Assembly: GCA_016790695.1 (NCBI GenBank)
Contig: JAEUOS010000001.1
Span: 822-64,821 of the forward strand
Length of the DNA stretch: 64,000 bases
Reading direction: 5' to 3'
Source of the DNA: Burkholderiales bacterium
GTDB taxonomy: Bacteria > Pseudomonadota > Gammaproteobacteria > Burkholderiales > JAEUOS01
The translations under genes were made by a program, and so were the position numbers. Below, one piece after another: positions 12,186-37,947 of this stretch. The notes under the pieces were generated by a model. The model searched no databases, was not told the DNA's origin, and saw nothing but the letters and a program-made list of their open reading frames with translations. The stretch's first letter is position 1, and every line of letters begins with the position of its first letter.

Positions 12186-13247
<1,062 letters not shown>

Positions 13248-14253: not shown

Positions 14254-14255
14254 GG

Positions 14256-22224: not shown

Positions 22225-22977
22225 CTAGGGCATGATCTCGCCGCCGTTCGGGTGCAGCAGCTGGCCGCAGTAGTAGCGCCCCTCGTCGGAGGCCAGGAAC
22301 ACGAAGGCCGAGGTCATGTCCTCGGGGGTGCCGAGGCGCTTGAGCGGCAGGCTCGCGGCGTGCGCGGCCTTGACCGCCTCGGGCAGCGGGTCGAAGCCGG
22401 TGTCGACCAGGCCGGGCGCGACGCCGTTGACGAGCACGCCGTGGGGCGCCAGCTCCTTGGCCAGCGCGCGCGTGAAGGCGATCACCCCGCCCTTGGCGGT
22501 CGAGTACGCGGTGTAGTTCTCGCGCCCGATGTAGCCCAGCTGCGAGCACAGGTTGATGATGCGCCCGGACTTCGCCGCCATCATGTGGCGCGCGGCGGCG
22601 CGCGAGCACAGGAAGGCGCCGCGCAGGTGCACGGCCATCATGCGGTCCCAGTCGGCGACGCTCATCTCGACGATCGGCTGCGGGCGCTGGATGCCGGCGT
22701 TGTTGACGAGGATGTCGAGCCGGCCGAAGCGGGCGACCACCTCGGCGAAGGCCGACTCGACCTCGGATTCCTGGGTGACGTCGGCGCGCAGCGCCTGCGC
22801 GTGGCGGCCGCGTGCCTCGATCTCGCGCACCAGCGTCGCCGCCTCCTCCTCGCGGGCGACGAACAGCACCGCGACGTCCGCACCTTCGTCGGCGTAGGCC
22901 AGCGCCACCGCGCGGCCGATGCCGGTGTTGCCGCCGGTGATCACGGCGACACGCCCGGCGAGTCGTTGCATGCTCAT
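22225..22977 (-). CDS. SDR-family oxidoreductase
   Basis: MSMQRLAGRVAVITGGNTGIGRA (TGxxxGxG), NNAG, YxxxK (YSTAKGG). ATGA-type overlap with the upstream gene. Confidence 0.9.
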   Translation of the reverse strand: MSMQRLAGRVAVITGGNTGIGRAVALAYADEGADVAVLFVAREEEAATLVREIEARGRHAQALRADVTQESEVESAFAEVVARFGRLDILVNNAGIQRPQPIVEMSVADWDRMMAVHLRGAFLCSRAAARHMMAAKSGRIINLCSQLGYIGRENYTAYSTAKGGVIAFTRALAKELAPHGVLVNGVAPGLVDTGFDPLPEAVKAAHAASLPLKRLGTPEDMTSAFVFLASDEGRYYCGQLLHPNGGEIMP

Positions 22978-23717
22978 TGGACCTCCTGGAACAGCCGCCC
23001 CCAGCCGCGCACGCGGCGGGTGTCGACGCCGGCGAGCTTCAGGCACTTCCACACCGCCGTGGCGATGCTGTCGTAGATCGGGATGCCGGTCTCGGCCTCG
23101 AGCGCCTCGACCAGGGGCGCGGCCTTGAGATTCGTGCACAGCGGGATGATCGCCTGCGGACGCGCGCGCGCGACCGCGCGCACCATGCCGGCGATCGCCT
23201 CCGGCGTCACCTCGGAGAACGAGAAATTGTGCGACAGGCCGAGGTGCTGCTCGGCCACCACCCGAAAGCCCGCCTGCGCGTAGTTGGCGTCGATGCGCGC
23301 CTGCACGTCGTCGGTGTAGGGGGTGACGAAGGCGATGTCGCGCGCCCCGGTGAGGCGCAGGATCTCGTTGATCGCCAGCACCGACGTGCCGGCCGGGATG
23401 CCGGTCGTCGCGGTCAGCTCGCGGCACAGCGTCTCGTCGGTGCCGAAGCCGAGCCAGGACGAGGAGGTGCCGTTCCAGGCGATCGCATGCAGCTCCGCGT
23501 CGGCCAGCAGGTCGGCCGCCGCGAGGATGTTGGCGCGGTCGAACTGGCCGAGCGCGGCGTCGGACAGCGCGATCGTGCGCACGCGAAAGCGCCCGAAGTG
23601 CGCGGTCACCTCCGGCAGGCCGGCGAGCATCATCGTCGTGATCGGCTCGAGCGCCGTGTTCGATGACGGCGTCAGCATGCCGATCAGGGTGCGTCGCGGC
23701 ATCGTCGTGGATTCCAT
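22974..23717 (-). CDS. Maleate isomerase / arylmalonate decarboxylase-like protein (Asp/Glu racemase superfamily)
   Basis: 247 aa. LIGMLTPSSNTALEP N-terminal motif and a second-half CTNL motif fit the two-Cys maleate isomerase/AMDase family. Confidence 0.78.
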   Translation of the reverse strand: MESTTMPRRTLIGMLTPSSNTALEPITTMMLAGLPEVTAHFGRFRVRTIALSDAALGQFDRANILAAADLLADAELHAIAWNGTSSSWLGFGTDETLCRELTATTGIPAGTSVLAINEILRLTGARDIAFVTPYTDDVQARIDANYAQAGFRVVAEQHLGLSHNFSFSEVTPEAIAGMVRAVARARPQAIIPLCTNLKAAPLVEALEAETGIPIYDSIATAVWKCLKLAGVDTRRVRGWGRLFQEVQ

Positions 23718-23744: not shown

Positions 23745-24440
23745 TCAGCCGGCGAGCGCCTCGGCCAGGTCGAAGGCGGCCTCGGGAGGCGGCGCCATGT
23801 CGAGCCCCTCCTCGACCTCGTTGAGATGGGCGAGCATCAGGCGCGCGGCGCGCGCGCCGTCGCCGCGCGCGATCGCGGCCGCGATCTCGACATGGTCGTC
23901 GCCGCGGCAGGCGGGCGTGTTGGGACTCTCGTAGAGGTAGATGACGAGGCTGGTCAGGGTCTCGAGTTCGCGCAGCATGCGCAGCATCAGCTGGTTGCCG
24001 GCCAGCTCGGCGAGCAGCAGGTGGAACTCGCCGGTCAGCCGGATCAGCGCACGATGGTCGTCGCGCGCCGCCGCCTCGGCCTCGCGCTTCAGGTGCGCCT
24101 CGAGGCGGCGCTCGACCGCGCGGTCGGTGCGCGCCGCCAGCGTCTGCACGATCGCCGGCTCGAGCAGCCGGCGCAATTCGAACACCTCGCGCGCCTGCTC
24201 GGCGGTCGGCTCGCTGATCGCCGCGCCGCGGTTGGGATGCAGGGTGACGATGCCCTCGTGCGCGAGCCGCGCCAGCACCGGCCGCACGCGCGCGCGATTG
24301 ACGCCGAACACCTGCGCCAGGCGGTCCTCGACCAGGCGGGTCCCCGGCGGCAGCCGGTGCTCGACCACCGCGGCCATGATGCGCTCGACCATCTGTTCCT
24401 GGGTCGGCGGGCGGTTGGCGTGGGTGGTCTTGGCAGGCAT
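23745..24440 (-). CDS. GntR-family (FCD/FadR-subfamily) transcriptional regulator
   Basis: wHTH LPPGTRLVEDRLAQVFGVNRARVRPVLARLAHEGIV plus an all-helical C-terminal FCD-like domain. Start chosen at MPAKTT. Confidence 0.85.
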   Translation of the reverse strand: MPAKTTHANRPPTQEQMVERIMAAVVEHRLPPGTRLVEDRLAQVFGVNRARVRPVLARLAHEGIVTLHPNRGAAISEPTAEQAREVFELRRLLEPAIVQTLAARTDRAVERRLEAHLKREAEAAARDDHRALIRLTGEFHLLLAELAGNQLMLRMLRELETLTSLVIYLYESPNTPACRGDDHVEIAAAIARGDGARAARLMLAHLNEVEEGLDMAPPPEAAFDLAEALAG

Positions 24441-24530
24441 GGCGTCGCCGCATTCTAATCGCGCCCCCGGCAGGGCACGCACCGAACCGGGTCATCGATG
24501 CACCCGAATGGTGTACAAACAATTTGACGT

Positions 24531-24564
24531 ATTGTTGACAAAATGCGTGATGTTAGTCAACAAT
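24531..24564. promoter_or_regulatory. Candidate GntR operator: perfect 9-bp inverted repeat
   Basis: ATTGTTGAC (24531-24539) and GTCAACAAT (24556-24564), 16 bp apart, in the AT-rich divergent GntR/racemase spacer. A third TTGAC lies at 24524-24528. Confidence 0.4.
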
Positions 24565-24620: not shown

Positions 24621-25355
24621 ATGAAGCTGCTGCTGGTCAACGGCAACCGCACACGGGCGGTGACGGCCGCCGTGCTGGCCGAGGCGCAGGCGACGGCCGC
24701 GGACGGCACCGAGCTGGTCGCCGTCGAGGCGGCGTTCGGCGCCGACATCGTGTTCTCCCACGCCGAGAACGCGGTCGCCACCCACGCGGTGCTCGACGCG
24801 CTCGCGCGCCACGCCGGCGGCTGCGACGCGGCGATCCTCGCGATCTCGTTCGATTCCGGCCTTGCCGCGGCGCGCGAGCTGCTGCCGATGCCGGTGCTGG
24901 GCATCACCGAAGCCGCGCTCCTGACCGCGTGCCAGCTCGCCCGCCGCGTCGGCGTCGTCACGGTCGGCCGCGTCTCGAGCAGCCTGTATGCCGAGGTGTT
25001 CGCGCAGACCGGCCTCGGCGACCGGATCGCGGCGGTCGGCACGGTCGACATGGCGTCGGCCGGCGAGTACCTGTCGCCGCAGGATTTCGACGCGCGCGTC
25101 GTCGCCGAGGCCAATCGCCTCGCCGCCGAGGCCGGCGCCGAAGCCGTCGTCGCCTGCGGCGCGGCCCTCGCGGGCATCGCGCGGCGCGCGCGCGCGGCGG
25201 TCGCGGTGCCGCTGGTCGACGGTGTCGGCGCCGCGGTGCGCCAGGCCGAGGCGCTGGTGCGCGGCGGCTATCGCGCGCGCGCGCGGCCCGCGGGCCCGCG
25301 CGCCACCATGGCCGGGGTGTCGGCCGAACTCGCCGCGCTGTTCGCGCGCCCCTAG
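24621..25355 (+). CDS. Hydantoin/allantoin racemase-family protein (Asp/Glu/hydantoin racemase superfamily)
   Basis: MKLLLVNGN... start with GGAGGAAGGGG RBS. 244 aa, with conserved AAILAISFDSG and VVACGAAL segments as in HyuE/HpxA-type racemases. Confidence 0.78.
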   Translation: MKLLLVNGNRTRAVTAAVLAEAQATAADGTELVAVEAAFGADIVFSHAENAVATHAVLDALARHAGGCDAAILAISFDSGLAAARELLPMPVLGITEAALLTACQLARRVGVVTVGRVSSSLYAEVFAQTGLGDRIAAVGTVDMASAGEYLSPQDFDARVVAEANRLAAEAGAEAVVACGAALAGIARRARAAVAVPLVDGVGAAVRQAEALVRGGYRARARPAGPRATMAGVSAELAALFARP

Positions 25356-25363
25356 CTGCGGCC

Positions 25364-26875
25364 ATGGCGCGCATCCTGATCCGGCGCGCCCGCGTGCTCA
25401 CGCTCGATGGCGACGACCGCGAGCTCGACCGCGCCGACATCCTGGTCGACGGCGCGCGCATCGCCGCGATCGGCGCGCAGCTCGACGCCGCCGGCGTCGA
25501 CCGGGTGATCGAGGCCGACGGCAAGCTCGCGATGCCCGGCCTCGTCAACGGCCACTTCCATTCCCCGGGCAACATGATGTGCGGCGCGCTCACCGACATG
25601 CCGCTCGAGCTGTTCATGCTCTACGAGGTGCCGCCCGGCGGCGAGGGCGCGATGGGCCATCGCCTCGCCTACGTGCAGACCCTGCTCGGCGCGGTGGAGA
25701 TGCTCAAGGCGGGCATCACCGCGGTGCACGACGACCCGTACCACAATCCGGCGCCGACCACCGACGGCATCGACGCGATCATGCAGGCGTACGCGGATGC
25801 CGGCATCCGCGCGACGGTCTCGATCAACCATCCGAACAGGATCGAGTACGAGAAGTACCCGTTCCTCGCCGACCTGCTGCCGGACGCGGTCAAGGCGCGC
25901 ATGGCCGCGGTGCGGCGCTGGCCGGCCGCCGAGATCGGCGCGCTGTACCGCTGGTTCCTCGAGCGCTGGCACGGCCAGGCCGACGGTCGCCTGCGCATCG
26001 CGGTGTCGAACTCGGCGCCGCAGCGGGTCACCGACGACTACTTCGCGACCCTGTCGGAGTTCAGCCGCGCGCACGACCTGCCGTTCGACATCCACATGCT
26101 CGAGACGCGCCTGCAGCGGGTGTTCGGCCAGGAGGTGTGGGGCAAGTCCCTGGTGCGCCAGGTCCACGACCTCGGATTCCTCGACCGGCGCATGCTGGTC
26201 ATCCATGCGATCTGGGTCGACGAGGCCGACATGGAGCTGCTGGCCGCCGCCGGCTGCACGGTCGCGCACAACCCGGTGTGCAACCTCAAGCTGGGCAGCG
26301 GGGTGATGCCGTTCCGGCGGCTTTCCAGACATGGCATACCGATTGCATTGGGCACCGATGAACGCAACACCGACGACACCACCAACGTCTGGGGCGCCAT
26401 GAAGACCGCCGGCCTGATCCACAAGATTGCCGAGCCCGACTACCGCGACTGGCCGAGCGCCGCGGAGGTCCTCGCCTGCGCCACGCGCGGCGGCGCGCGC
26501 GGCATGGGCCTCGAGGGCCGGATCGGCGTCCTCGCGCCCGGCGCGCAGGCCGACCTGATCCTGGTCGACCTCGACACCCTGCCGTTCACGCCCCTGAACG
26601 ACCTGCGGCGCCAGCTGGTGTTCTGCGAGAACGGCGCGTCGGTGCGCCTGACCATGGTCGCCGGGCGCGTCGTGGTGGAGGACGGCCGCGTCCTCAGCGT
26701 CGACGAGCCCGCGCTCAGGGCCGAGGTGCGCGCGCTCGCCGCCGAGTTCCGCGACAGCCTCGCCGCCACCGACCGCGCCGCCGCCGCGCTCGAACCCTTC
26801 TACCGCGCGATGCTCATGCGCGCGCTCGACGTGCCGGTCGGCATGGAGCGCCGCGCCGGGCCGATGACGCCGTGA
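25364..26875 (+). CDS. Metal-dependent amidohydrolase (ATZ/TRZ, guanine/cytosine-deaminase-like)
   Basis: 503 aa. N-terminal beta-sandwich, then PGLVNGHFHSP (HxH metal ligands) and a late GTDE motif. 4-nt overlap with the next gene. Confidence 0.85.
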   Translation: MARILIRRARVLTLDGDDRELDRADILVDGARIAAIGAQLDAAGVDRVIEADGKLAMPGLVNGHFHSPGNMMCGALTDMPLELFMLYEVPPGGEGAMGHRLAYVQTLLGAVEMLKAGITAVHDDPYHNPAPTTDGIDAIMQAYADAGIRATVSINHPNRIEYEKYPFLADLLPDAVKARMAAVRRWPAAEIGALYRWFLERWHGQADGRLRIAVSNSAPQRVTDDYFATLSEFSRAHDLPFDIHMLETRLQRVFGQEVWGKSLVRQVHDLGFLDRRMLVIHAIWVDEADMELLAAAGCTVAHNPVCNLKLGSGVMPFRRLSRHGIPIALGTDERNTDDTTNVWGAMKTAGLIHKIAEPDYRDWPSAAEVLACATRGGARGMGLEGRIGVLAPGAQADLILVDLDTLPFTPLNDLRRQLVFCENGASVRLTMVAGRVVVEDGRVLSVDEPALRAEVRALAAEFRDSLAATDRAAAALEPFYRAMLMRALDVPVGMERRAGPMTP

Positions 26876-27798
26876 TCCCGCCCGCCATGCTCGCCACCCA
26901 CGGCCGGTTCGCCTACTCCGCCATCACCGAGCGGCCGCGCTTCGCCTGGCCGGAAGGCAGGCGCCTGGCCGTCTACGTCGCGCTGAACCTCGAGGCCTAT
27001 GCCTTCGGCGAAGGCCTGATCGAGGAGATCGCCGCGCCCGGACCGGGCCCGGCGCCGGACGTGATGAACTGGTCGTGGCTCGAGTACGGCAATCGCGTCG
27101 GCGGCTGGCGCCTGCAGCGCCTGTTCGCCGAGCTGCGCCTGCCGTGCACGCTGCTGGTCAACGCCGCGGTCTATCGCCACTGCCCGCAGTTGCCGGCCGC
27201 CTTCGCCGCCGCCGGCGCCGAGATCGCCGCGCACGGACGCACCAATTCGGAGCGCCAGGGCAACCTGCCCGAGCCCGCCGAGGCCGCGCTGATCGCCGAG
27301 GCGACCGCCGCCATCGCGGCCGGCGCCGGGACGCGGCCGCGCGGCTGGCTCGGCCCCTGGATCTCCGAAAGCCGCGTCACGCCGGACCTGCTGCACGAAG
27401 CCGGCTACCGCTACGTGCTCGACTGGTGCTGCGACGACCAGCCGTTCTGGCTCGCCACCCGCGGCGGGCGGCTCCTGGCCGTGCCGTACCCGCAGGAGCT
27501 CAACGACAGCAATACCGTGATCGGCCGGCGCGTCAATCCCGACGATTTCGCCGACATGATCGTCGACAACTTCGCCGAGATGCGCCGCCAGGCCGAGGAC
27601 GCGCCGCTGGTGATGGGCGTCTCGCTCCATGCGCACTGCGCCGGCCAGCCGTTTCGCCTCGTGCATTTCCGGCGCGCGCTGGCGGCGCTGGCGCAGGCGC
27701 TGCCCGACGTCTGGGTCACGACCGCCGGCGCCATCGCCGACCACTTCATAGCCACCACGACCGGCACGACCGAGGCCGCGGGAGACAAAGCGCGGTGA
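26872..27798 (+). CDS. Polysaccharide-deacetylase-fold hydrolase, PuuE-allantoinase-like
   Basis: 308 aa, collinear with the PuuE family (EYGNRVGGWRL, EIAAHG, PRGWLGPW, DDQPFW, VPYPQELND, SLHAHCAGQPFR). Substrate not assignable. Confidence 0.82.
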   Translation: MIPPAMLATHGRFAYSAITERPRFAWPEGRRLAVYVALNLEAYAFGEGLIEEIAAPGPGPAPDVMNWSWLEYGNRVGGWRLQRLFAELRLPCTLLVNAAVYRHCPQLPAAFAAAGAEIAAHGRTNSERQGNLPEPAEAALIAEATAAIAAGAGTRPRGWLGPWISESRVTPDLLHEAGYRYVLDWCCDDQPFWLATRGGRLLAVPYPQELNDSNTVIGRRVNPDDFADMIVDNFAEMRRQAEDAPLVMGVSLHAHCAGQPFRLVHFRRALAALAQALPDVWVTTAGAIADHFIATTTGTTEAAGDKAR

Positions 27799-27833: not shown

Positions 27834-28292
27834 ATGCATCCGATCGATCCGCAGCGACGGGACGTCCTCGCCGCCGGCACGCTGGCCGCCGGCGCCCTGC
27901 TGGCCGCCGCCTCCGGCGCGCAGGCCCAGCCGGCCCTGCCGCCCAAGCTTTCCACCCACGCGCTCGACACCTACAACGGCAAGCAGGCCGCCGGCATCCG
28001 CATCGACCTGTACCAGATCGAGGGCGACAGCCGGCGGCTCATCAAGACCGTGCGCGCCAACGAGGAAGGGCGGGTCACCGCCAACCTGCTCGAGGGCGAC
28101 GCACTCAAGGTGGCGCGCTACGAACTGGTGTTCCACGTCGCCGAGTACTACAAGGCGATGGGCGTGGCCCAGTCGAATCCGGAGTTCCTCGACGTGGTGC
28201 CGCTGCGGGTGGCGATCTGGGACGCGCGGCAGCGCTACCACGTGCCGCTGTACTTCTCGCCATGGGGCTACATGACCTACCGCGGCAGCTGA
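27834..28292 (+). CDS. hiuH: Transthyretin-like 5-hydroxyisourate hydrolase with twin-arginine-type signal peptide
   Basis: Signal MHPIDPQRRDVLAAGTLAAGALLAAASGAQA. HALD...GKQAAG N-terminal motif, HVPL, and the diagnostic C-terminal YRGS tetrapeptide. GGAGAA RBS. An alternative ATG lies at 27822. Confidence 0.8.
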   Translation: MHPIDPQRRDVLAAGTLAAGALLAAASGAQAQPALPPKLSTHALDTYNGKQAAGIRIDLYQIEGDSRRLIKTVRANEEGRVTANLLEGDALKVARYELVFHVAEYYKAMGVAQSNPEFLDVVPLRVAIWDARQRYHVPLYFSPWGYMTYRGS

Positions 28293-28344
28293 GCCGCCCG
28301 CGCCCGCCCTGCCCCCACGACCCACGCTTTCCGGAGAATTCACC

Positions 28345-28803
28345 ATGGACCAGACCGACACCCGGCGCCGCGACTTCATCGCCGCCGCCATCGCCGCCGG
28401 CGGCACGCTTGCCGCCTCGAAGGACGCCGCCGCCCAGGCCCCGGCCGGCGGCCGCGTCACCGCCCACATCCTCGACCTCTACTTCGGCACCCCCGCGAGC
28501 GGGCTCCGGCTCGACTTCTATGCCGTCGGCAGCGCCGGCCAGACCCTGATCAAGTCGACCGTGACCAACGCCGACGGGCGCCCGCCCGAGGGGCCGCTGG
28601 TGCAGCCGGCCGACATGAAGGCCGGGCGCTACCGCATCGACGTGCACGTCGGCGACTACTACAAGAAGGCCGGCGCCAAACTGCCGGGCGGCTACCACAC
28701 GCGCCTGTCGATGGAGTTCGACATCTACGACCCGAAGCAGCCGCACCACCTGCCGTTCCAGATCACGCCCTGGACGCAGTCGTCGTCGGTGCTGCCCGGC
28801 TGA
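28345..28803 (+). CDS. Divergent transthyretin-like protein with twin-arginine signal peptide (lacks the C-terminal YRGS)
   Basis: TRRRDFIAAAIAAGGTLA Tat motif. HILD...GTPASG and HHLPF are conserved, but the C-terminus is ...SSSVLPG instead of YRGS. Confidence 0.75.
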   Translation: MDQTDTRRRDFIAAAIAAGGTLAASKDAAAQAPAGGRVTAHILDLYFGTPASGLRLDFYAVGSAGQTLIKSTVTNADGRPPEGPLVQPADMKAGRYRIDVHVGDYYKKAGAKLPGGYHTRLSMEFDIYDPKQPHHLPFQITPWTQSSSVLPG

Positions 28804-28837: not shown

Positions 28838-29836
28838 ATGCCCTCCCCCCTCAAGGCCCTCGCCGCCGGCCTCGCCGCGGCACTCGCCTTCGCCCACGCC
28901 GGCGCGCAGGCGCAGGACAAGATCCGGCTCGCCGGCAACTTCGAGACCGCGCATTCGTCCAGCGTCGCCATGGAACAGGTGTTCAAGGCCGAGCTGGCCA
29001 AGCTGACCAGGAACCAGTTGCAGGTCGACATCTTCCCCGCCATGCAGCTCGGCGGCGCCAAGGAGAACGTCGACGCCGTGCGCGCCGGCTCGCTGCTCAT
29101 GACCTGGGTCGGCGCGGCCTACCTGTCGCGCATCATCCCCGAGCTCGAGGCGGTCAGCCTGCCCTTCCTGTTCCCGAGCCGCGAGGCGGCGTTCCGCGTC
29201 ATGGACGGCAACGTCGGCAAGCTGATCGACCAGAAGATGGCCGACAAGAACTTCACCGTGCTCGGCTGGATGGAGCTGGGTTCGCGCAACATCACCAACA
29301 ACAAGAAGCCGATCCGCAGCATCGAGGACCTGAAGGGCCTGAAGATCCGCCTGCAGCCCAACGAGACCCATCTCGCGACCTTCCGCGCGCTCGGCGCCAA
29401 CGCGGTGGCGATGGACGTCAAGGAGCTGTACTCGGCGCTCGAGCAGAAGGTGCTCGACGGCCAGGAGAACCCGTTTCCGATCATCCGCGCCGCGCGCTAC
29501 ATGGAGGTGCAGAAGTACCTCTCCAACAGCGGGCACTTCTTCGACTTCATCGTCATCGTCGCCAACAAGAAGTCCTTCGAGGGCCTGAAGCCCGACTACC
29601 AGAAGGCGATCCGCGAGGCGATGGCGGCGACCGTCGCCGCGCAGCGCGCGAGCGCCGCGAAGGCCGACGCCGACGCGCTCGAGGAGCTCAAGAAGCGCAT
29701 GGAGTACACCGAGCTCTCGCCGCAGGTGCGCGAGGCGATGCGCAAGGCCACGGCCGGCGTGATCGACGACGTGAAGAAGCGCGCCGGCGCGGCGCTGGTC
29801 GACAGCGTGCTCGCCGAGGTGGCGAAGTCGCGCTAG
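28838..29836 (+). CDS. dctP: TRAP transporter substrate-binding protein (DctP family), system 1
   Basis: 332 aa. Signal peptide, DctP-family length and motifs (GGAKENVDAVRAGSL, LKGLKIR). Confidence 0.88.
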   Translation: MPSPLKALAAGLAAALAFAHAGAQAQDKIRLAGNFETAHSSSVAMEQVFKAELAKLTRNQLQVDIFPAMQLGGAKENVDAVRAGSLLMTWVGAAYLSRIIPELEAVSLPFLFPSREAAFRVMDGNVGKLIDQKMADKNFTVLGWMELGSRNITNNKKPIRSIEDLKGLKIRLQPNETHLATFRALGANAVAMDVKELYSALEQKVLDGQENPFPIIRAARYMEVQKYLSNSGHFFDFIVIVANKKSFEGLKPDYQKAIREAMAATVAAQRASAAKADADALEELKKRMEYTELSPQVREAMRKATAGVIDDVKKRAGAALVDSVLAEVAKSR

Positions 29837-29855: not shown

Positions 29856-30347
29856 ATGGCGATGTTCAAGTCGATGCTCGACGGGTTCGACCGGCTGGTC
29901 TGCTGGACCATCATGCTGGCGATGGCCCTGATGGTGGCCGTGGTGTCGGCGCAGGTGCTGCTGCGCTACGGCTTCAATTCCTCGTTCGACTGGGCCGACG
30001 ACGTCGGCCGCCTGCTGTTCGTCGCCTCGGTGTTCCTCGCCATCCCGATCGGCGTCAAGCACAGCGCGCACATCAGCATCGAGCTGCTGGTGGCGCGCCT
30101 GCCCGCGTCCGTGCGCGGCGGGCTGGCGCGCCTCGTCGCCCTGCTCTCGGCGGCGATGATGGCGCTGATCTGCTGGTACGGCGTGCGCGTCGCGGCCGAG
30201 CAGTGGACCGAGATGCTGCCGACGGTCGAGCTGACCGTCGCCAGCTTCCTGATCCCGGTGATCGTCGGCGCCGCGCACAGCGCGATCCATCTCGCGCGCA
30301 TCGTCGTGGCCGGTCCGCCCGCGAGCGCGGGCCTGGCCGCCGAATGA
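29856..30347 (+). CDS. dctQ: TRAP transporter small permease (DctQ family), system 1
   Basis: 163 aa, four hydrophobic segments. Lies between the DctP and DctM genes. Confidence 0.85.
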   Translation: MAMFKSMLDGFDRLVCWTIMLAMALMVAVVSAQVLLRYGFNSSFDWADDVGRLLFVASVFLAIPIGVKHSAHISIELLVARLPASVRGGLARLVALLSAAMMALICWYGVRVAAEQWTEMLPTVELTVASFLIPVIVGAAHSAIHLARIVVAGPPASAGLAAE

Positions 30348-30357: not shown

Positions 30358-31644
30358 ATGAGCCTCGGCATCTTCCTCGGCTTCCTGCTGCTCGGGGTGA
30401 TCGGCATGCCGATCGCCTTCTCGCTGGGCTTTGCGGCCATGGTCGCGCTCGCGTTCTCGGACGTCGGGCTCGCGATCATCCCGCAGCGCATGATGCACGC
30501 GGTCAATTCGTTCCCCCTGATGTCGATCCCGTTCTTCATCCTGGCCGGCGAGCTGATGGTCAAGGCCGGCATCGTCGAGCGCCTGATCGAGCTCGCCAAC
30601 GCGGTGGTCGGGCGGGTGCGCGGCGGCCTCGCGCACGTGACCATGCTCTCCGGCGCCGGCCTGGCCACGGTCTCGGGCGCGGCGGTTTCCGACGCCAGCG
30701 CGCTGTCGACCATCCTCGGCCCGTCGCTCACGCGCGCCTACGACAAGCCGTTCGCCTCGGCGATCATCGCCGCGGCCGGCAACCTGGGCCCGATCATCCC
30801 GCCTTCGGGCGCGATGATCGTCTACGCGTTCATGGCCGGGCCCTCGGTCTCGGTCGGCGGCATGTTCATGGCCGGCGTCGTGCCCGGCATCCTGATCACC
30901 ACCGGCTTCATGCTGCTGTGCACCTGGTACGTCGGGCGCCGCGGCTACCCCGCGACCGGCGACGCGTTCAGCTTCCGCAACGTGTTCGTGCAATTGCGCC
31001 GCTCGTTCATCATCTTCATGATGCCGGTGGTGGTGATCGGCGGCATCGTCGGCGGCGCCTTCACCGCGACCGAAGGCTCGGCGATCGCGGTGGTCTACGC
31101 GCTCGTCATCGGGTTCGCCGTCACCCGCCGCCTCAGGCTGGCGGACCTGCCCGAGATCCTGCTGCGTTCGGCGATCACCACCGCGATGGTCGGCGCGCTG
31201 ATCGCCTTCGCCTCGGTCGTCACCTACATCCTCACCGTCGACCTGCTGCCGCAGCAGCTCGCGACGCTGGTCAAGTCGATCACCTCGAGCCCGCTCGGCT
31301 ACATGGCGCTGGTGGCGGTGCTGCTGTTCGTGGTCGGCATGTTCCTCGAGTCGAATGCGGCCTACATCATGCTGGTGCCGCTGCTGCACCCGATCGCGCT
31401 GCAGTACGGCATCGACCCGCTGCACTTCGGCTTCCTGTTCGTGCTCAACCTGGTGATCGGCATGCTCACCCCGCCGGTCGGCGTGGTGCTGTTCGTGGTG
31501 TGCGGGATCAACAAGATCTCGATGCGCGAGATCGTGGTCGCGCTGTGGCCGTTCATCACCCTGATGTACGGCGTGCTCGTGCTGTGCATGCTGTTCCCGC
31601 CGGTGGTCACCTGGCTGCCGCGCCTGCTCGGGTACGGCGCATGA
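30358..31644 (+). CDS. dctM: TRAP transporter large permease (DctM family), system 1
   Basis: 428-aa polytopic membrane protein with DctM-type sequence (SIPFFILAGELM). Confidence 0.9.
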   Translation: MSLGIFLGFLLLGVIGMPIAFSLGFAAMVALAFSDVGLAIIPQRMMHAVNSFPLMSIPFFILAGELMVKAGIVERLIELANAVVGRVRGGLAHVTMLSGAGLATVSGAAVSDASALSTILGPSLTRAYDKPFASAIIAAAGNLGPIIPPSGAMIVYAFMAGPSVSVGGMFMAGVVPGILITTGFMLLCTWYVGRRGYPATGDAFSFRNVFVQLRRSFIIFMMPVVVIGGIVGGAFTATEGSAIAVVYALVIGFAVTRRLRLADLPEILLRSAITTAMVGALIAFASVVTYILTVDLLPQQLATLVKSITSSPLGYMALVAVLLFVVGMFLESNAAYIMLVPLLHPIALQYGIDPLHFGFLFVLNLVIGMLTPPVGVVLFVVCGINKISMREIVVALWPFITLMYGVLVLCMLFPPVVTWLPRLLGYGA

Positions 31645-31714: not shown

Positions 31715-32443
31715 ATGAGCGCCGACGCCCTGCGCCTGGGGATGATCCTGCCGTCGTCGAACACCGTCGTCGAGCCGGTCGCCTGCGAGATGGTCGCCGC
31801 GCTGGCCCCGACGCTGCCGGCGAGCGTGCACTTCTCGCGCTTCGCGCTCACCGCGGTGCAGGTGGCCGACCCGGCCGCCGCCTACTACGACTCGGGCGCC
31901 CTGCTGGGCGCCGCACGCCTGCTCGCCGACGCGCGCTGCCACGCGATCTGCTGGAACGGCAGCGCCGGCGGCCTGGTCGGCTTCGCGCGCGACCGCCGCC
32001 TGTGCGACGAGATCCGCGCGGCGACCGGCAGCGCCGCCACCACCTCCAGCCTCGCCATCCTCGATGCCCTGCGCGCGGCGCGCGCGCGCACCTTCGGGCT
32101 GGTGACGCTCAACCCGCCGGCGATGAACCGCACCATCCTGGCGAGCTTCGCGGCCGAGGGCTTCACCGGCATCGCCTCGACCGACCGCGACGACATCGCC
32201 GACAACTTCGCGATGGCCGCGGTCGGCGCCGCGGAGATCGCCGCCGCCGTGCGCCGCTGCGCGCGCGACCGTCCCGACGCGGTCGTCATCTACGGCACCA
32301 ACACGCGCGGCGCCGCGCTCGCCGGCCCGCTCTCGCGCGAGCTCGGGCTGCCGGTGCTCGATTCGGTCGCGATGGGCGTGATCGGCGCGGTGCGCGTGGC
32401 CGGGCGCGACGCGGCGGCCCTCGCCCGCTGGCTGCCGCCGTAG
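31715..32443 (+). CDS. Maleate isomerase / arylmalonate decarboxylase-like protein (Asp/Glu racemase superfamily), second copy
   Basis: 242 aa. LGMILPSSNTVVEP N-terminal motif parallels the 22974..23717 product. Confidence 0.75.
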   Translation: MSADALRLGMILPSSNTVVEPVACEMVAALAPTLPASVHFSRFALTAVQVADPAAAYYDSGALLGAARLLADARCHAICWNGSAGGLVGFARDRRLCDEIRAATGSAATTSSLAILDALRAARARTFGLVTLNPPAMNRTILASFAAEGFTGIASTDRDDIADNFAMAAVGAAEIAAAVRRCARDRPDAVVIYGTNTRGAALAGPLSRELGLPVLDSVAMGVIGAVRVAGRDAAALARWLPP

Positions 32444-32520: not shown

Positions 32521-33561
32521 ATGCGATTGATGCCACTCGTACTCACCGCCGCCGCGCTCGCCGCCGCGCTGCCGGCAGCCGCGCAGGAGAAGATCAAGCT
32601 GCGCGTCATGGGCATGCCGCTCTCGACCGGCATGATCCACAAGAACAAGGAACAGCCGTTCTTCGAGACCCTGGCCGCGAAGACGGGCCTGCCGCTCGAC
32701 GTCGACTACAAGCCGCTCGATTCCACCGGCGTCAAGGAGTTCGAGCAGCTGCGGGTGATGAAGACCGGCATCTACGACATCGTCGGGCTGCGCATGGGCC
32801 AGGTCTCACGCGACGAGCCGACCATCCTCGGCCTCGATCTCGTCGGCCTGAACACCGACTACAAGACCGCGAAGAAGGTCGTCGGCGCCTACCAGAGCTT
32901 CGTCGACCTGCGCCTGCAGGAGCAGTTCAACCTGAAGCTGCTCGGGGTCTGGCCGTTCGGCCCGCAGGTGATCTTCTGCAAGCCCCCGATCAAGGACCTC
33001 GCGAGCCTCAAGGGAATGAAGGTGCGCATCCTCGACGGCGTGATGGCCAAGTTCATGGAGCGCGTCGGCGCCACCCCGGTGACGATGGCCTTCGGCGAGG
33101 TCGCGCAGGGCCTGAAGCTCGGCACCATCGACTGCGCCGTCACCGGCCCGTCGTCGGCCAATTCGGCCGGCTGGCCCGAAACCGCCACCCACATGTACGT
33201 GCTCGGCCTGCAGGTGGCGGTGCAGGGCTACGCGATCAACATGAACTCCTGGAAGAAGATGTCGTCCGACCAGCAGATCAAGCTGCGCGGCGCCATCGAG
33301 GGGCTCACCGACGACATCTGGAAGTACTCGGAGGAGCTGTGGAGCGACGGCGTGCGCTGCAACACCGGCCAGGAGCCCTGCACCACCGGCAAGAAGTTCA
33401 AGATGACCCTGGTCAAGCCCACCCCGAAGGACGTCGCCTTCGTGCAGAACGCGGTGAAGGACATCTCGCTGCCGGCCTGGGCCGAGGCCTGCGACAAGGT
33501 CAATCCGAACTGCTCGGCGAACTGGAAGAAGACCGTCGGCCCGATCATCGGCATCAAGTGA
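32521..33561 (+). CDS. TRAP transporter substrate-binding protein, system 2
   Basis: Signal MRLMPLVLTAAALAAALPAAAQ. 346 aa, immediately upstream of DctQ/DctM-type genes. Cys-rich C-terminal third (four Cys). Confidence 0.82.
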   Translation: MRLMPLVLTAAALAAALPAAAQEKIKLRVMGMPLSTGMIHKNKEQPFFETLAAKTGLPLDVDYKPLDSTGVKEFEQLRVMKTGIYDIVGLRMGQVSRDEPTILGLDLVGLNTDYKTAKKVVGAYQSFVDLRLQEQFNLKLLGVWPFGPQVIFCKPPIKDLASLKGMKVRILDGVMAKFMERVGATPVTMAFGEVAQGLKLGTIDCAVTGPSSANSAGWPETATHMYVLGLQVAVQGYAINMNSWKKMSSDQQIKLRGAIEGLTDDIWKYSEELWSDGVRCNTGQEPCTTGKKFKMTLVKPTPKDVAFVQNAVKDISLPAWAEACDKVNPNCSANWKKTVGPIIGIK

Positions 33562-33607: not shown

Positions 33608-34186
33608 ATGAAACGTCTCGAGCAGGTCGCCGCCACGCTGTTCGGCGCGGTGTTCCTCATCCTCTCCTTCGCCGTCGCGCTGGAAACCTTCATGCGCAAG
33701 GTGTTCAACGTCTCGCTGCAGGGCGTCGACGAGCTCGGCGGCTACATCCTGGCCGTCGGCGCGTCGCTCGCATTCACCCTGGCGCTGATCTCGCGCGCGC
33801 ACATCCGCATCGACCTCGTGCACGACCGTCTCGCGCGCGCGCCGCGCCTGGCGCTGAACGTGATCGCGGTCCTGTTCATCACCGCCACCGCCGCGTTCAT
33901 GCTGGCGATGGCCTACTACAGCCTGCGCGACTCGATCGCCCTCAACAGCACCGCGCAGACGCCGTGGGCGACGCCGATCAAGTACCCGCAGATGGTGTGG
34001 ATCGCCTGCCTCGGCCTGTTCGCGGCGGTCTCCGCGGGCTACGGCCTGCGCGTCCTGCTGCTGGCGGCGAGCGGCCGCAGCGCGGAGATCGAGGCGCGCT
34101 ATTCCCCCAAGGGCGCGAAGGAGGAACTGCAGGAAGAGCTCGATGACGTGCGCGCGCGCGGCGCGGCCGGCGGGAGCGCGCCATGA
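33608..34186 (+). CDS. TRAP transporter small permease, system 2
   Basis: 192 aa, four hydrophobic segments. AGGAG RBS. 4-nt overlap with the large permease gene. Confidence 0.85.
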   Translation: MKRLEQVAATLFGAVFLILSFAVALETFMRKVFNVSLQGVDELGGYILAVGASLAFTLALISRAHIRIDLVHDRLARAPRLALNVIAVLFITATAAFMLAMAYYSLRDSIALNSTAQTPWATPIKYPQMVWIACLGLFAAVSAGYGLRVLLLAASGRSAEIEARYSPKGAKEELQEELDDVRARGAAGGSAP

Positions 34187-35478
34187 GCATGGTCGCGGTG
34201 GGCATGACCAGCTTCGTGGTCATGGTCGGGCTGATGCTCCTCGGCATGCCGATCGCCGCGGTGATGATGCTGCTCGCGGTGGCGGGCGGCATGGCCGCCT
34301 TCGGCGAGGCGTTCCTGATCTCCGCGGCCTCGGTGCTGTGGGGCACGATGAGCGAGAACGGCCTGACCGCGATCCCGCTGTTCGTCCTCCTGGGCGAGCT
34401 GCTGCTGCGCAGCGGCATGGCGGACCGCATGTACCAGGCCTTCGCGGCCTGGCTCGGCCGCCTGCCCGGCGGCCTGCTGCACACCAACATCGGCTGCTGC
34501 GCGCTGTTCGCCGCCACCTCGGGATCGTCGGTCGCCACCGCGGCGACCATCGGCACGGTGGCGCTGCCCTCGCTGCAGCGCCACGGCTACCCGATGAAGG
34601 AGGCGCTCGGCAGCCTGGCCGCGGGCGGCACGCTGGGAATCCTGATCCCGCCGTCGGTGAACATGATCATCTACGGCTCGATGACCAACAATTCGGTCGG
34701 CAAGCTGTTCATCGCCGGCATCCTGCCGGGGCTGCTCCTCACGGGCCTGTTCATGCTCTGGATCTTCATCATGGCCAAGGCCACCGGCATGGCGGTCAGG
34801 CACGAGCCGGTGCCGCTCGGCGAGCGCTTCCGCGTCCTGGGCGGGGTGATCCAGCCGCTGATCATCTTCGCCATCGTCATGGGCAGCCTGTACTTCGGCA
34901 TCGCCACGGCGACCGAGTCCGCGGCCATCGGCGTCGTGGTGGCGGTGGTGTTCATCGCCTTCTCCGGCCGGCTCACGCCCGCGCTGCTGCAGGGCTGCTT
35001 CCTGTCGTCCGCACGCACCACCGGCATGATCCTGCTCATCACGACCGCGGCCTTCGTGCTCAACCTCGCGCTCAGCCTGACGGGCATCGGCGAGGCGCTC
35101 ACCAAGTGGGTCACCGGCTTCGGCCTGTCCAAGACCGCGCTGCTGCTCGCGCTGATCCTGTTCTACCTGCTGCTGGGCATGTTCATGGACACGCTGTCGA
35201 TGATGGTGGCGACGATTCCGCTGACCTACCCGATCGTCACCGCCGTCGGCGTGGACCCGATCTGGTTCGGCATCTTCATCGTCATCATGTGCGAACTCGG
35301 CCTCATCACCCCGCCGGTGGGCATGAACCTGTTCGTGGTCCAGGGCATCCGGCCCGACCGCGGCAGCGTCGGCGACGTGATCCGCGGCGCGTTGCCCTAC
35401 GCGGTGATCATGATCCTGTTCACCTTCATCCTGATGGCGTTCCCCGGGATCGTCACGTTCCTGCCGGAGAACATGTAG
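34183..35478 (+). CDS. TRAP transporter large permease, system 2
   Basis: 431-aa polytopic protein, DctM-type (AIPLFVLLGELLL). Confidence 0.9.
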   Translation: MSMVAVGMTSFVVMVGLMLLGMPIAAVMMLLAVAGGMAAFGEAFLISAASVLWGTMSENGLTAIPLFVLLGELLLRSGMADRMYQAFAAWLGRLPGGLLHTNIGCCALFAATSGSSVATAATIGTVALPSLQRHGYPMKEALGSLAAGGTLGILIPPSVNMIIYGSMTNNSVGKLFIAGILPGLLLTGLFMLWIFIMAKATGMAVRHEPVPLGERFRVLGGVIQPLIIFAIVMGSLYFGIATATESAAIGVVVAVVFIAFSGRLTPALLQGCFLSSARTTGMILLITTAAFVLNLALSLTGIGEALTKWVTGFGLSKTALLLALILFYLLLGMFMDTLSMMVATIPLTYPIVTAVGVDPIWFGIFIVIMCELGLITPPVGMNLFVVQGIRPDRGSVGDVIRGALPYAVIMILFTFILMAFPGIVTFLPENM

Positions 35479-37042
35479 CGACGGCGGCCGCGAACTCGCC
35501 GACGAGGGCGGCGATCGCCGTCGGCGTCGCCGCCACGCCGTAGACGTAGTGGTCCGGCCGCACCAGCGCGGCGGCGGCTTCGTGGCGCGCGAACCAGGCG
35601 GCGGCGATGCCGTCCTGCTCCGCGGCGTCGATCACGCCCGCGGCGCGCACACCGGGCGGTGCGCCGAACCGCACCACCCCGAGGCCGGCCGCGGCGGCAG
35701 GGCCAAGGACCGCCGCCGCGTCGACGTCGCCGCGCAGCATCAGCCGCGCGCCGGCGCCGGCGACGTCGTCGAGCAGTGCCGTGGCGCCCGCATGCGCGAT
35801 CCGCGGCTGCGGAAACAGCGTGCCGTTGGCCGGATGCGCGCGCGCCGACAGCAGGCCGCATTCCAGCGGCGGAATCAGGTCCTGGCGCGGCACGCTCCTG
35901 ACCGTCCCGCCCGCGGCGGCGATCAGGTCGGCGTCGCGCCGGCGCGCGCGCACCGGATCGCGTTCGCAGATCGTCTCGCCGATGTGCTTGATGGTCGTCG
36001 TGAGGCGCCGCACGTGGGCGGCGCGCTCGTCGCCGTAGGTGTCGAGCAGCGCGTCGCCGGCGCGCCCGCGCAGCACCGCGTCCAGCTTCCAGCCGAGGTT
36101 GGCGACGTCGCGCACGCCCTGGCACATGCCCTGGCCCAGGAACGGCGGCTGCTGGTGCGCCGCGTCGCCGGCCAGGAACACCCGGCCCGCGCGCCAGCGC
36201 GACGCGACCAGCGCATGGAAGCGGTAGCTCGCGCGGCGCCACAGCCGCCCTTCCTCCGGCGCGATCCAGCGCGACAGGAGCTTCCAGACCTGCGCGTCCT
36301 GCTCCATCGCGGCGGGATCCTCGCCGGGCAGCAGCATGATCTCCCAGCGCCGATGGTTGCCGGTGCCGATCAGGTAGGTGGTCGGGCGCGCGGGCTCGCA
36401 GAACTGCGCGCTGGTCGGCGGCAGGCGCGCGCCGTCGCCTTGGTTCACGAGCACGTCGACGACCAGCCAGGGTTCGTCGAAGCCGAGGTCGTCGTGCGCG
36501 ATGCCGAGCTGGCGGCGCACGGTCGAGCTCGCGCCGTCGCAGCCGATCAGGTAGCGCGCCGTCGCGCGGCGCGCCGCGCCGTCGGCCGCGCGGTAGCGGA
36601 CCGCCACCGCGCCTGCCTCCTCGTCCCCCGCCTCCTCGTCGAATTCCAGCAGTTCGCAGCCCAGCGCGAGATCGACGCCCTTCTGCGCGCGCACCTGCAC
36701 GCGCAGCGCCTCCTCGATCGGCGGCTGCAGGAACACCACCGACGGCGTCCAGCCGAGCGGATACGGCGGATCGACCATCGTGAGCCGCCGGATCAGCTGC
36801 CCGTCGACGCCGTAGTGTTCCGAGGCGGAGAACGGGGCGATGTGCGGCAACATCGCCTCGATCGCGCCGAGGTTCTGGTAGACGCGCAGGATCTCGTGGT
36901 CCATCGCGAACGCGCGCGGCCTGTCGTACACCGCCGTCAGGCGGTCGATCACCAGCACGCGGTGGCCGAGCCGCCCGAGCAGCAGCGCGGCGGTGGCCCC
37001 GGCGGGGCCGTAGCCCGCGATGGCGACGTCGTAGTCGGCCAT
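35453..37042 (-). CDS. FAD-dependent aromatic hydroxylase (MhpA-like 3-(3-hydroxyphenyl)propionate hydroxylase family)
   Basis: MADYDVAIAGYGPAGATAALLL (GxGxxG) and GDAAHQQPPFLGQGMCQGVRD. This is the only credible part of the 35453..39004 track ORF. Its 3' end overlaps the convergent TRAP gene by 26 nt. Confidence 0.85.
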   Translation of the reverse strand: MADYDVAIAGYGPAGATAALLLGRLGHRVLVIDRLTAVYDRPRAFAMDHEILRVYQNLGAIEAMLPHIAPFSASEHYGVDGQLIRRLTMVDPPYPLGWTPSVVFLQPPIEEALRVQVRAQKGVDLALGCELLEFDEEAGDEEAGAVAVRYRAADGAARRATARYLIGCDGASSTVRRQLGIAHDDLGFDEPWLVVDVLVNQGDGARLPPTSAQFCEPARPTTYLIGTGNHRRWEIMLLPGEDPAAMEQDAQVWKLLSRWIAPEEGRLWRRASYRFHALVASRWRAGRVFLAGDAAHQQPPFLGQGMCQGVRDVANLGWKLDAVLRGRAGDALLDTYGDERAAHVRRLTTTIKHIGETICERDPVRARRRDADLIAAAGGTVRSVPRQDLIPPLECGLLSARAHPANGTLFPQPRIAHAGATALLDDVAGAGARLMLRGDVDAAAVLGPAAAAGLGVVRFGAPPGVRAAGVIDAAEQDGIAAAWFARHEAAAALVRPDHYVYGVAATPTAIAALVGEFAAAVATCSPAGT

Positions 37043-37947
37043 CAGGCGGTCCACTGCGCCGCGAAGCCGATCGCGCGCTGCGCCGCCTTGAGCTCGGGCG
37101 TCGGCCCGACCGCGATGCCCCACTGGTCGATGCGCCCGGGCGGCCATTTCCAGTCCTCGGGGCGGCCGACGCGGTAGCTGTCGTCGACCGTCGACACTTC
37201 GGCGGTGTACTCGATCGGGAAGCCGAACGGCCCGAGGAAATAGTTGAACAGGTTGTTGCCGGGTCCGTGGCGTCCCGGCCCCCAATGGATCGGGTAGCCG
37301 GCGTCCTTCATGCGCCCGCCGCCGCGCATGACGTCGTCGAGGCCCGGCATGACGAAGGCGATGTGGTTCAGGCAGTCGTTGTCGGCGTCGGCCAGCGCGA
37401 TGCTGTGGTGGTCGGTGTTGCAGCGCATGAAGGCCATGATGCGCGTGCGGTCCGAGAGCTTCATGCCGAGGGCGCCCTCGTAGAAGGCCTGGGCCGCGGC
37501 GACGTCGCGGCTGTTGACGACCACGTGCGCGAGGCGCTCGGGGCGGTCGCGCGCCGGCCCGGCGTCGGCATGGCGCGCGCCGTCGCTGACCGCGCGCAGG
37601 ATGCGGCCTTGGGGATCGCGAAAGACGACACCGTAGCCGCCGGCCGGATCCGCCTGCGGCGCCGGGGCGCGCAGGACGGTGCCGCCGTTCGCCGGCACGC
37701 GCTCGGCCAGCGCATCGACGGCCGCGCGCGACGGCGCGCCGAGGGTGATCGCGAGCACCACCGGTTGCGGCGACTGCTCCACCGACAGCAGGTGGTGGTC
37801 GGCGCCGCTGCCGCGCAGGTAGACCGCGCGCGCGTCGCGCGCGACCTCGGCGAGGTGCCAGGTGTCGACGTAGAAGCGCACGGCGGCGGCGACATCGGGA
37901 ACGCCGATGGCGACGCTGCGCAAACCGTTGACCAGGGGTGTGCTCAT
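37042..37947 (-). CDS. Type I extradiol ring-cleavage dioxygenase (VOC/glyoxalase-fold, two-domain)
   Basis: 301 aa with two VOC modules. The C-terminal module has HIAFV and ...IEY metal-ligand context as in catechol/dihydroxybiphenyl 2,3-dioxygenases. Confidence 0.82.
   Translation of the reverse strand: MSTPLVNGLRSVAIGVPDVAAAVRFYVDTWHLAEVARDARAVYLRGSGADHHLLSVEQSPQPVVLAITLGAPSRAAVDALAERVPANGGTVLRAPAPQADPAGGYGVVFRDPQGRILRAVSDGARHADAGPARDRPERLAHVVVNSRDVAAAQAFYEGALGMKLSDRTRIMAFMRCNTDHHSIALADADNDCLNHIAFVMPGLDDVMRGGGRMKDAGYPIHWGPGRHGPGNNLFNYFLGPFGFPIEYTAEVSTVDDSYRVGRPEDWKWPPGRIDQWGIAVGPTPELKAAQRAIGFAAQWTA

Follow-up and report, generated by a model that had tools for sequence, protein, structure and literature searches.

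The closest described relatives of the two genes treated here are the canonical 5-hydroxyisourate (HIU) hydrolases (HIUases), among them Bacillus subtilis PucM, Klebsiella pneumoniae HpxT (kpHIUH), and the Brucella and Herbaspirillum proteins 4q14 and 8uw4. The two genes, T1 and T2, lie next to each other in a stretch of 64,000 nucleotides (nt) from the metagenome-assembled genome of an uncultured Burkholderiales bacterium (assembly GCA_016790695.1, contig JAEUOS010000001.1, positions 822 to 64,821), which as a whole is called the window. Canonical HIUases have two active sites at the dimer-dimer interface, two-fold symmetric and built from two chains. To each site, both chains contribute His, Arg, His, the tail Tyr, and the terminal Ser, the last of which holds the substrate and the Arg through its backbone and carboxylate (PMC8272043). 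As far as the work of Jung et al. is summarized there, deletion of the PucM tetrapeptide strongly reduces catalysis, and the effect of S108A is mild (cited in PMC8272043). The fold and the His/Arg/His set of these enzymes are common to T1 and T2, and the YRGS tail and a passing score with the TIGR02962 model are common to T1. In contrast, canonical HIUases are single-gene homotetramers and mostly cytoplasmic, whereas T1 and T2 carry export leaders and are always encoded as a pair. T1 differs from them by G-K-Q-A for G-x-P-A, PLY for PLL, and Met147. In T2 the Tyr, Arg, and terminal Ser are missing, T-Q is inserted after Pro-Trp, RPPEGP follows the catalytic Arg, and PFQ stands in place of PLL.

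The enterobacterial transthyretin-like protein (TLP)/HiuH group, including Escherichia coli YedX and Salmonella TLP, also belongs to the HIUase family, is exported, and is active outside the cytoplasm; in the periplasm, HiuH acts as a hydrolase of HIU and breaks down urate hydroperoxide (PMC4324301, PMC3528726, PMC13252058). An initial annotation of the window regarded two exported copies as unexpected. Since enterobacteria are known to have exported HIUase/transthyretin-like proteins (PMC4324301, PMC3528726, PMC13252058), and urate hydroperoxide is the proposed periplasmic substrate of E. coli HiuH (PMC13252058), export by itself is not novel and the surprise falls away. HiuH comes from a single gene, which shares a stress operon with msrPQ under HprSR control, and the protein retains YRGS and contains no methionine; T1 and T2, on the contrary, lie in a catabolic-type operon with transporters and hydrolases. 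With NF011610, the enterobacterial HiuH model with a 217-bit cut-off, T1 scores 58.9 bits and T2 26.3 bits. An HiuH orthologue or an oxidative-stress module is thus rejected, because these scores are far under the cut-off, msrPQ is absent, and the mature proteins are not methionine-free, each having two Met residues. One of those in T1, Met147 (28272-28274), is invariant in the T1 clade just ahead of the catalytic tail (Y-M-T-Y-R-G-S), at a position that is usually Ser in the family. In contrast to this residue, the methionine-free state of E. coli HiuH was reported as an adaptation to oxidant exposure (PMC13252058).

Vertebrate transthyretin is, like T2, an HIUase descendant without the C-terminal Tyr and tail, and is the only well-studied case of this kind with a new role. 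It has lost the catalytic residues and is a homotetrameric hormone carrier, whereas T2 is bacterial, keeps His/Arg/His, and is tied to a canonical partner. T2 also groups with HIUases and so does not resemble the vertebrate type, which is defined by loss of the catalytic residues and a deep hormone channel. In the HIUase-to-transthyretin transition, a textbook case, small changes of the C-terminal tail at an oligomer interface brought about a new function. The same tail element has been remodelled a second time in T2, independently and with strong conservation, in bacteria and together with a canonical partner.

Fused proteins, namely (S)-allantoin synthase (HIUase plus OHCU decarboxylase, 5z5m; OHCU, 2-oxo-4-hydroxy-4-carboxy-5-ureidoimidazoline) and proteins with two HIUase domains, indicate that the fold works inside multi-part assemblies. 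Unlike T1 and T2, they are single polypeptides without leaders, both domains have Y-R-G, and none has an SVLPG tail. Seven uncharacterised two-domain proteins (P0245, P0248, P0256, P0260, P0261, P0265, and P0282) are single chains of 260-283 aa without a leader, in which the first domain ends with an internal YRG(V/A)PP and a linker, and the second ends with YRGS. Their assemblies should be asymmetric because the internal YRG of the first domain leaves no terminal carboxylate free. Full-text literature searches turned up no report on bacterial HIUase relatives lacking YRGS as a clade, on an SVLPG tail, or on heteromeric HIUases, and the tail-swapped, obligately paired clade appears to be undescribed.

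Two HIUase-fold proteins with different tails

T1 matches PF00576 with E=1.6e-29 and 103.2 bits, and T2 with E=5.1e-17 and 62.9 bits (cut-off 25.3); two adjacent matches at such E-values are far beyond chance. The sequence GGAGAA stands 4 nt before the T1 ATG at 27834 as a Shine-Dalgarno sequence and 6 nt before the T2 ATG, while an in-frame ATG at 27822 is a less likely alternative start of T1. The strong Pfam matches, the ribosome-binding sites, and the orthologues of both genes confirm the two plus-strand open reading frames (ORFs) proposed initially, and for the same reasons an ORF-calling artefact in GC-rich DNA is rejected. The proposed motifs H-x-L-D, G-x-(P/Q)-A-x-G, and H-(V/L)-P were likewise found in both proteins. 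The closest Protein Data Bank (PDB) match of T1 by sequence is 4q14 (E=1.4e-31). Between T1 and T2 the identity is 31% over 108 residues.

Residue equivalences were taken from alignments to 4q14, 8uw4, and PucM (2h0e), and from a family-wide alignment. His42/Arg80/His136 of T1 correspond to His41/Arg79/His135 of T2, His14/Arg49/His105 of PucM, and His7/Arg41/His92 of kpHIUH. T1 ends with ...SPWGYMTYRGS and scores 107.8 bits with TIGR02962, the HIUase equivalog, over its cut-off of 87.45, whereas T2 reaches 67.1 bits and ends with ...TPWTQSSSVLPG. The Tyr, Arg, and terminal Ser of YRGS are missing from T2 under either possible tail alignment. The initial view of a canonical first protein and a second one without YRGS therefore stands, with the addition that T2 keeps His/Arg/His. 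The VLPG end presumably fits neither an LPXTG nor a PEP-CTERM sorting signal.

The 120 best homologues of T1 are 68-100% identical to it and have YRGS in 100% of cases. Invariant among them are LPPKLSTHALDTY.GKQAAGI in the N-terminal mature segment and PLYFSPW..MTYRGS. In the family-wide alignment, T1 deviates at positions that are 87-98% conserved in the family, with G-K-Q-A versus G-x-P-A and P-L-Y versus P-L-L. On these signatures, T1 is regarded as a specialised clade in its own right. One Leu of strand G that is conserved in the family is replaced throughout both clades, by Tyr140 in T1 and by Gln139 in T2.

Among 5.8 billion proteins, a search with T2 recovered 217 homologues, the best 120 of which are 54-100% identical and all end with ...PFQ(I/V)(T/S)PWTQ(S/A)xSVLPG. 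In a library of representatives at 50% identity, the tail TPWTQ[SA]xSV[LF]PG holds down to ~47% identity. The next matches, at ~40% identity, are ordinary YRGS enzymes, which outscore the cluster representative of T1 itself. Further invariant motifs found in T2 only are D-G-R-P-P-E-G-P after the catalytic Arg, G-D-Y-Y-K-K-x-G-A-K-L-P in the helix region, and P-H-H-L-P-F-Q. His41, Arg79, and His135 are conserved at 99-100% in the main T2 clade. By these measures T2 is classed as a separate, deeply diverged, and conserved clade with its own invariant motifs, and the label of a degenerate copy, used in the initial annotation, does not suit it. A recent tandem duplicate of T1 is rejected in view of the 31% identity and of the generic HIUases that outscore T1 against T2.

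Both genes are under purifying selection. In 20 genomic sequences, the median ratio of non-synonymous to synonymous substitution rates (dN/dS, Nei-Gojobori) is 0.17 for T1 and 0.23 for T2. The 12 codons of the T2 tail occur in 20 different DNA versions, with residue changes at one variable position and a single Thr-to-Lys replacement, so that in the 11 fixed codons every change but one is synonymous. The AlphaFold2 model of T2 has a mean predicted local distance difference test (pLDDT) score of 80 and a core above 90. With this model, the top Foldseek matches are the HIUases 4q14 and 8uw4 (template modelling score 0.88-0.92, root-mean-square deviation 1.1-1.9), with transthyretins lower, and the transthyretin-type beta-sandwich fold is accordingly predicted for T2.

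T1 and T2 are stored at the National Center for Biotechnology Information (NCBI) at 100% identity, both as 'hydroxyisourate hydrolase'. Despite its fold and catalytic triad, T2 should not be filed as an HIUase, since it lacks YRGS and scores too low for the equivalog. Of the database entries with this name, more than 200 are probably mis-annotated, since the motif needed by the enzyme is absent from them.

Obligate pairing and predicted export

In 185,579 species-representative genomes, scanned with T2 as the seed, 22 loci were found, all of them in metagenome-assembled genomes of uncultured Burkholderiales or Betaproteobacteria. In all 18 loci where T2 is intact and its upstream sequence is available, and likewise in the window, T2 is preceded at a distance of 13-57 nt by a T1 orthologue (67-90% identical). 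In the reciprocal scan of metagenome contigs seeded with T1, a T2-type gene is directly downstream of T1 in 30 of 30 testable loci (T2 complete in 25 and running off the contig end in 4; T1 cut by the contig start in 1), and two further loci have both genes disrupted. The most diverged metagenome pairs are 53-57% (T1) and 41-48% (T2) identical to those of the window. The pair is kept in at least four gene contexts: that of the window; a rearranged TRAP (tripartite ATP-independent periplasmic) transporter/amidohydrolase type, which also has a CDA-type deaminase, a cyclic amidohydrolase, a hydantoin racemase, and an asparaginase; an ABC-transporter/CoA-transferase type; and a position beside a three-domain multicopper oxidase. 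Among ~49 testable loci, an intact gene of either clade was never seen without its partner. T2-like sequence without T1 is found only as deletion remnants or a frameshifted copy. In L020 (7947-8228) and L022 (~7890-8105), the T1 leader has been fused by a deletion to a C-terminal portion of T2 while the remaining cluster is intact, and L021 (~7900-8330) has a frameshifted T2 and no T1. T1 and T2 are a fixed, obligate pair, and since T2 is a real gene that always accompanies T1, the two most likely cooperate in the periplasm.

Two chimeric proteins were also noticed. P0110 is a full-length in-frame chimera of the T1 leader and first ~25 mature residues followed by T2, and P0249 is a T1/T2 chimera of 108 aa; both are possible assembly artefacts. 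Judging from the fused sequences, recombination between the two paralogues has occurred.

In a distant lineage (L051-L053 and L058), T2 has PVQIP for PHHLP, yet the tail and the T1 partner are retained, and the L051-lineage T2 with PVQIP keeps CTPWTQACSVLPG. The canonical catalytic His is therefore lost from T2 at least in this lineage. The L051 pair (3914-4910) is directly upstream of a three-domain multicopper oxidase (5208-6560) and beside a TetR gene, and the same arrangement is present in L052, L053, and L058; this oxidase could be a periplasmic oxidant of urate-like substrates. A distant T2 subclade (L046-L048, L051-L053, L055, and L057; P0246, P0276, and P0307) has two Cys around the tail loop, C-T-P-W-T-Q-A-C-S-V-L-P-G, which would suit a periplasmic disulfide pinning the tail onto strand G.

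The N-terminus of T1 reads MHPIDPQRRDVLAAGTLAAGALLAAASGAQA/Q and that of T2 MDQTDTRRRDFIAAAIAAGGTLAASKDAAA/QA. Q-R-R-D-V-L in T1 and R-R-R-D-F-I in T2 are followed by an Ala/Gly/Leu-rich h-region and an AxA site (AQA and AAA, respectively). With the twin-arginine translocation (Tat) motif, the h-region, and the AxA site all present, both are predicted Tat-exported proteins. Their leaders give weak profile matches to Tat-signal models, and PF10518 is annotated on some homologues. The initial assignment of both to the transthyretin/HIUase family with Tat-type leaders agrees with PF00576 and with these predicted leader motifs. An N-terminal signal peptide is recognizable in every clade member. 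RR-x-[FLIV]-[LIVF] is found in 77 of 118 T1-clade and 88 of 119 T2-clade leaders (~65-75%), the others being Sec-type in look, and an AxA-type site is nearly universal. Within pairs, the leader types mostly agree, being Tat/Tat in 15, Sec/Sec in 2, and ambiguous in 2. Because leaders vary between Tat and Sec while signal peptides are universal, the conserved property is predicted to be the periplasmic location and not the export route.

A proposed mixed enzyme and the rival explanations

The favoured but tentative explanation, to which a probability of about 0.45 is given, is that T1 and T2 belong as subunits to a single periplasmic enzyme, a hetero-oligomer of the HIUase/transthyretin fold. 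A single GntR-controlled operon would make both proteins, which would be exported (with Tat-type leaders here and Sec-type leaders in some relatives) and join as a mixed tetramer. Because HIUase sites are formed by two chains on a two-fold axis at the dimer-dimer interface, the T1/T2 interface would be an asymmetric active site. His/Arg/His would come from both chains and the Tyr and terminal carboxylate of YRGS from T1 only, while T2 would add its hydrophobic SVLPG tail and the two-residue insertion in the G-H loop. This site would hydrolyse the ring amide of HIU, or of a close analogue formed outside the cytoplasm, to an OHCU-like carboxylate. The neighbouring TRAP system would take the product into the cell, and further breakdown would be carried out by the cytoplasmic allantoin-racemase and PuuE relatives, the TRZ/ATZ amidohydrolase, and the enzymes resembling arylmalonate decarboxylase (AMDase). 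OHCU, the product of HIU hydrolysis, is a carboxylate, and DctP-type TRAP systems mostly take up organic acids. The adjacency of a TRAP binding-protein gene, considered odd in the initial annotation, would be explained by this match.

The clade-specific invariant changes lie in the AB loop of T1 (G-K-Q-A), the G-H loop of T2 (T-Q insertion), and the rewritten strand H of T2. These three elements are what we take to be the dimer-dimer contact and the active-site lining in transthyretin-fold tetramers. A site made of T2 only would be without elements of the canonical mechanism, as T2 has no Tyr, Arg, or terminal Ser; in E. coli HiuH, Y111F has no activity on urate hydroperoxide in vitro (PMC13252058). 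The role of a partner subunit suits T2 best because the pairing is all-or-none, essential tail residues are lost, and the His is lost in one paired lineage. Of the three ideas offered initially for the pair, the hetero-tetramer fits best owing to this strict pairing, as an assembly favoured by the pattern and not a demonstrated one.

Several points weigh against a mixed tetramer. Pairing, co-loss, and concordant leaders are equally expected of two homotetramers that catalyse linked steps. The interaction is one that we infer; coevolution analysis would need more than the ~50 closely related pairs. The correlation of pairwise distances (r=0.84) can be explained by shared phylogeny alone and is not used as evidence. 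The tail of the T2 model has a pLDDT of only ~61-75, and the near-invariant His/Arg/His of the main T2 clade could mean an autonomous enzyme. Moreover, the true substrate may not be HIU, and urate oxidase, xanthine dehydrogenase, and OHCU decarboxylase were not found between about 12 and 53 kb in the window.

Autonomy of T2 would be the basis of a somewhat unlikely alternative, in which the two proteins are separate periplasmic homotetramers of one pathway, T1 being an ordinary HIUase and T2 acting on a related molecule. This molecule could be the other enantiomer of non-enzymatic racemic HIU, urate 5-hydroperoxide, an N-substituted analogue, or the product of T1. His41/Arg79/His135 at 99-100% and the many clade-specific invariant residues of T2 would suit such an enzyme, as would its distance from T1 (31% identity, with ordinary HIUases scoring better against T2) and operons rich in racemase-superfamily genes, which fit the handling of stereoisomers; for alternative substrates, the precedent is the periplasmic HIUase that degrades urate hydroperoxide (PMC13252058). 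On the other side, T2 is without the Tyr needed in characterised enzymes (PMC13252058, PMC8272043), its catalytic His is Gln in one lineage where the pair is still kept, and separate enzymes should occur singly in some genomes, which none of the ~49 testable loci does. The missing Tyr and the lost His of the L051 lineage would agree with T2 as a non-catalytic binding or hand-over protein, which captures the labile substrate or the T1 product and passes it to T1 or to the TRAP binding protein. T2 would then be a bacterial counterpart of vertebrate transthyretin. The vertebrate HIUase became a binder when its C-terminal strand and tail were remodelled, and a Tyr-to-Thr change there abolishes HIUase activity (PMC4324301). 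In window-type loci, the T2 gene is directly upstream of a TRAP binding-protein gene, but in other contexts the pair does not adjoin one, and the near-invariant His/Arg/His of the main clade would be needless for pure binding. We know of no bacterial precedent for a transthyretin-like protein in such a role, and this explanation is quite improbable.

A negligible chance is left for T2 as a decaying or redundant duplicate of T1 without its own function, which was an alternative in the initial annotation. The score under the equivalog cut-off and the loss of YRGS would agree with decay, but more than 200 homologues exist, the best 120 share the same tail, dN/dS is ~0.23, and one non-synonymous change is present in the fixed tail codons of 20 sequences. 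In addition, all 19 genome loci with an intact pair have an unbroken T2 ORF, and the truly decayed copies in L020-L022 look different. The pseudogene is thus rejected by the conservation, the dN/dS, and the invariant tail.

The mixed-tetramer reading also has a bolder form, which is unlikely. T1 and T2 would be the first natural hetero-tetrameric member of the transthyretin/HIUase fold, with an asymmetric periplasmic site for a heterocycle other than ordinary (S)-HIU, such as racemic or peroxidised urate-oxidation products or a substituted analogue. They would form the entry of an undescribed 'outside-in' ureide-like pathway, present only in uncultured Burkholderiales, in which periplasmic ring opening is followed by TRAP uptake of the carboxylate and by divergent racemase, PuuE-like, and amidohydrolase steps. 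If the mixed tetramer is true, it would show gene duplication making a symmetric interface active site asymmetric, and would place the start of a nitrogen-heterocycle pathway in the periplasm of soil and freshwater Burkholderiales, which are abundant but uncultured.

Operon and gene neighbourhood

T1 and T2 sit in a same-strand gene run that starts after a divergent GntR/FCD gene and a promoter-like site, and no convincing terminator was found within the run (Table 1). The order is racemase-like, TRZ/ATZ amidohydrolase, PuuE-like, T1, T2, TRAP DctPQM, AMDase-like, and second TRAP. On the opposite strand, the position of the AMDase-like gene is conserved in related loci.

Table 1. Positions of T1, T2, their elements, and the neighbouring genes in the window
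Feature	Position	Strand	Remark
SDR (short-chain dehydrogenase/reductase) gene	22225-22977	-	opposite strand, next to GntR gene
Second AMDase-like gene	22974-23717	-	opposite strand, next to GntR gene
GntR/FCD-family regulator	23745-24482	-	divergent; conserved beside cluster
Promoter-like site TTGACA-18-AACAAT	24535-24564	+	between GntR gene and first operon gene; consensus match only
Asp/Glu/hydantoin-racemase family protein	24621-25355	+	best solved relative allantoin racemase 5lfd, E=2.2e-23
TRZ/ATZ-type amidohydrolase	25364-26875	+	deaminase/chlorohydrolase family including 8-oxoguanine deaminase; under every equivalog cut-off
PuuE-allantoinase-like, polysaccharide-deacetylase fold	26872-27798	+	3cl6, E=2.3e-26; 122 bits versus 424.6 cut-off
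T1	27834-28292	+	152 aa; predicted exported canonical HIUase-type protein
T1 Tat-type leader	27834-27926	+	~residues 1-31
T1 catalytic equivalents	27957-27959; 28071-28073; 28239-28241	+	His42; Arg80; His136
T1 tail Y149-R-G-S152	28278-28289	+	
T1-T2 spacer	28293-28344	+	52 nt; holds T2 GGAGAA ribosome-binding site, no terminator-like structure
T2	28345-28803	+	152 aa; predicted exported tail-swapped HIUase-fold protein
T2 Tat-type leader	28345-28440	+	~residues 1-30/32
T2 retained residues	28465-28467; 28579-28581; 28744-28749	+	His41; Arg79; His134-His135
T2 tail T144-Q-S-S-S-V-L-P-G152	28774-28800	+	clade-defining
TRAP transporter 1	DctP 28838-29836; DctQ 29856-30347; DctM 30358-31644	+	directly downstream of T2
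AMDase/maleate-isomerase-like protein	31715-32443	+	Asp/Glu racemase superfamily
TRAP transporter 2	DctP-type 32521-33561; DctQ 33608-34186; DctM 34183-35478	+	DctP-type protein divergent

The region between the GntR and racemase genes, likely the control region of the operon, has overlapping divergent promoter-like sites (TTGACA/TTGACT-18-AACAAT) at 24535-24564 (+) and 24560-24531 (-). For three enzymes, the best solved relatives are in the ureide pathway, namely HIUase, allantoin racemase 5lfd, and PuuE 3cl6. The cytoplasmic ureide-type relatives score far below the equivalog cut-offs, and by its score the PuuE-like protein is considered a distant relative of PuuE. Because the best solved relatives are ureide-type yet below these cut-offs, the cluster appears to encode not the standard urate pathway but a diverged, ureide-like one that handles a nitrogen heterocycle. 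A PuuD or HpxO-like partner as a nearby source of HIU was also not found between 12 and 53 kb in the window. The flavin adenine dinucleotide (FAD) monooxygenase at 35453-37054, beside an extradiol dioxygenase on the other strand, has the FAD_binding_3 fold, which is presumably also that of the flavin urate hydroxylase HpxO, and may be an oxidase. The PDB matches of both TRAP binding proteins gave no informative ligand names.

Genes of the Asp/Glu-racemase superfamily are unusually concentrated in these clusters. Several AMDase/maleate-isomerase-like paralogues occur per cluster together with an allantoin-racemase-like gene (22974-23717 (-) and 31715-32443 (+) in the window; 8491-9246 in L011; 10164-11599 in L016), and one AMDase-like paralogue could be a non-canonical decarboxylase of the imported carboxylate. 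In the rearranged context of L011, the pair is followed at 9251-14618 by an AMDase-like protein, a CDA-type zinc deaminase, a 482-aa cyclic amidohydrolase, a hydantoin racemase, a 605-aa protein without a Pfam match, and an asparaginase_2 enzyme, which is the nitrogen-heterocycle catabolic theme again. Five periplasmic receptors of the TctC/Bug family are present in a 32-kb part of the window (13282-14253, 17113-18087, 37975-38949, 40740-41753, and 44455-45423). They lie amid aromatic-catabolism-type genes, including a Rieske oxygenase (42775-44079), the FAD monooxygenase (35453-37054), and the extradiol dioxygenase (37042-37947), an arrangement typical of Burkholderiales catabolic regions.

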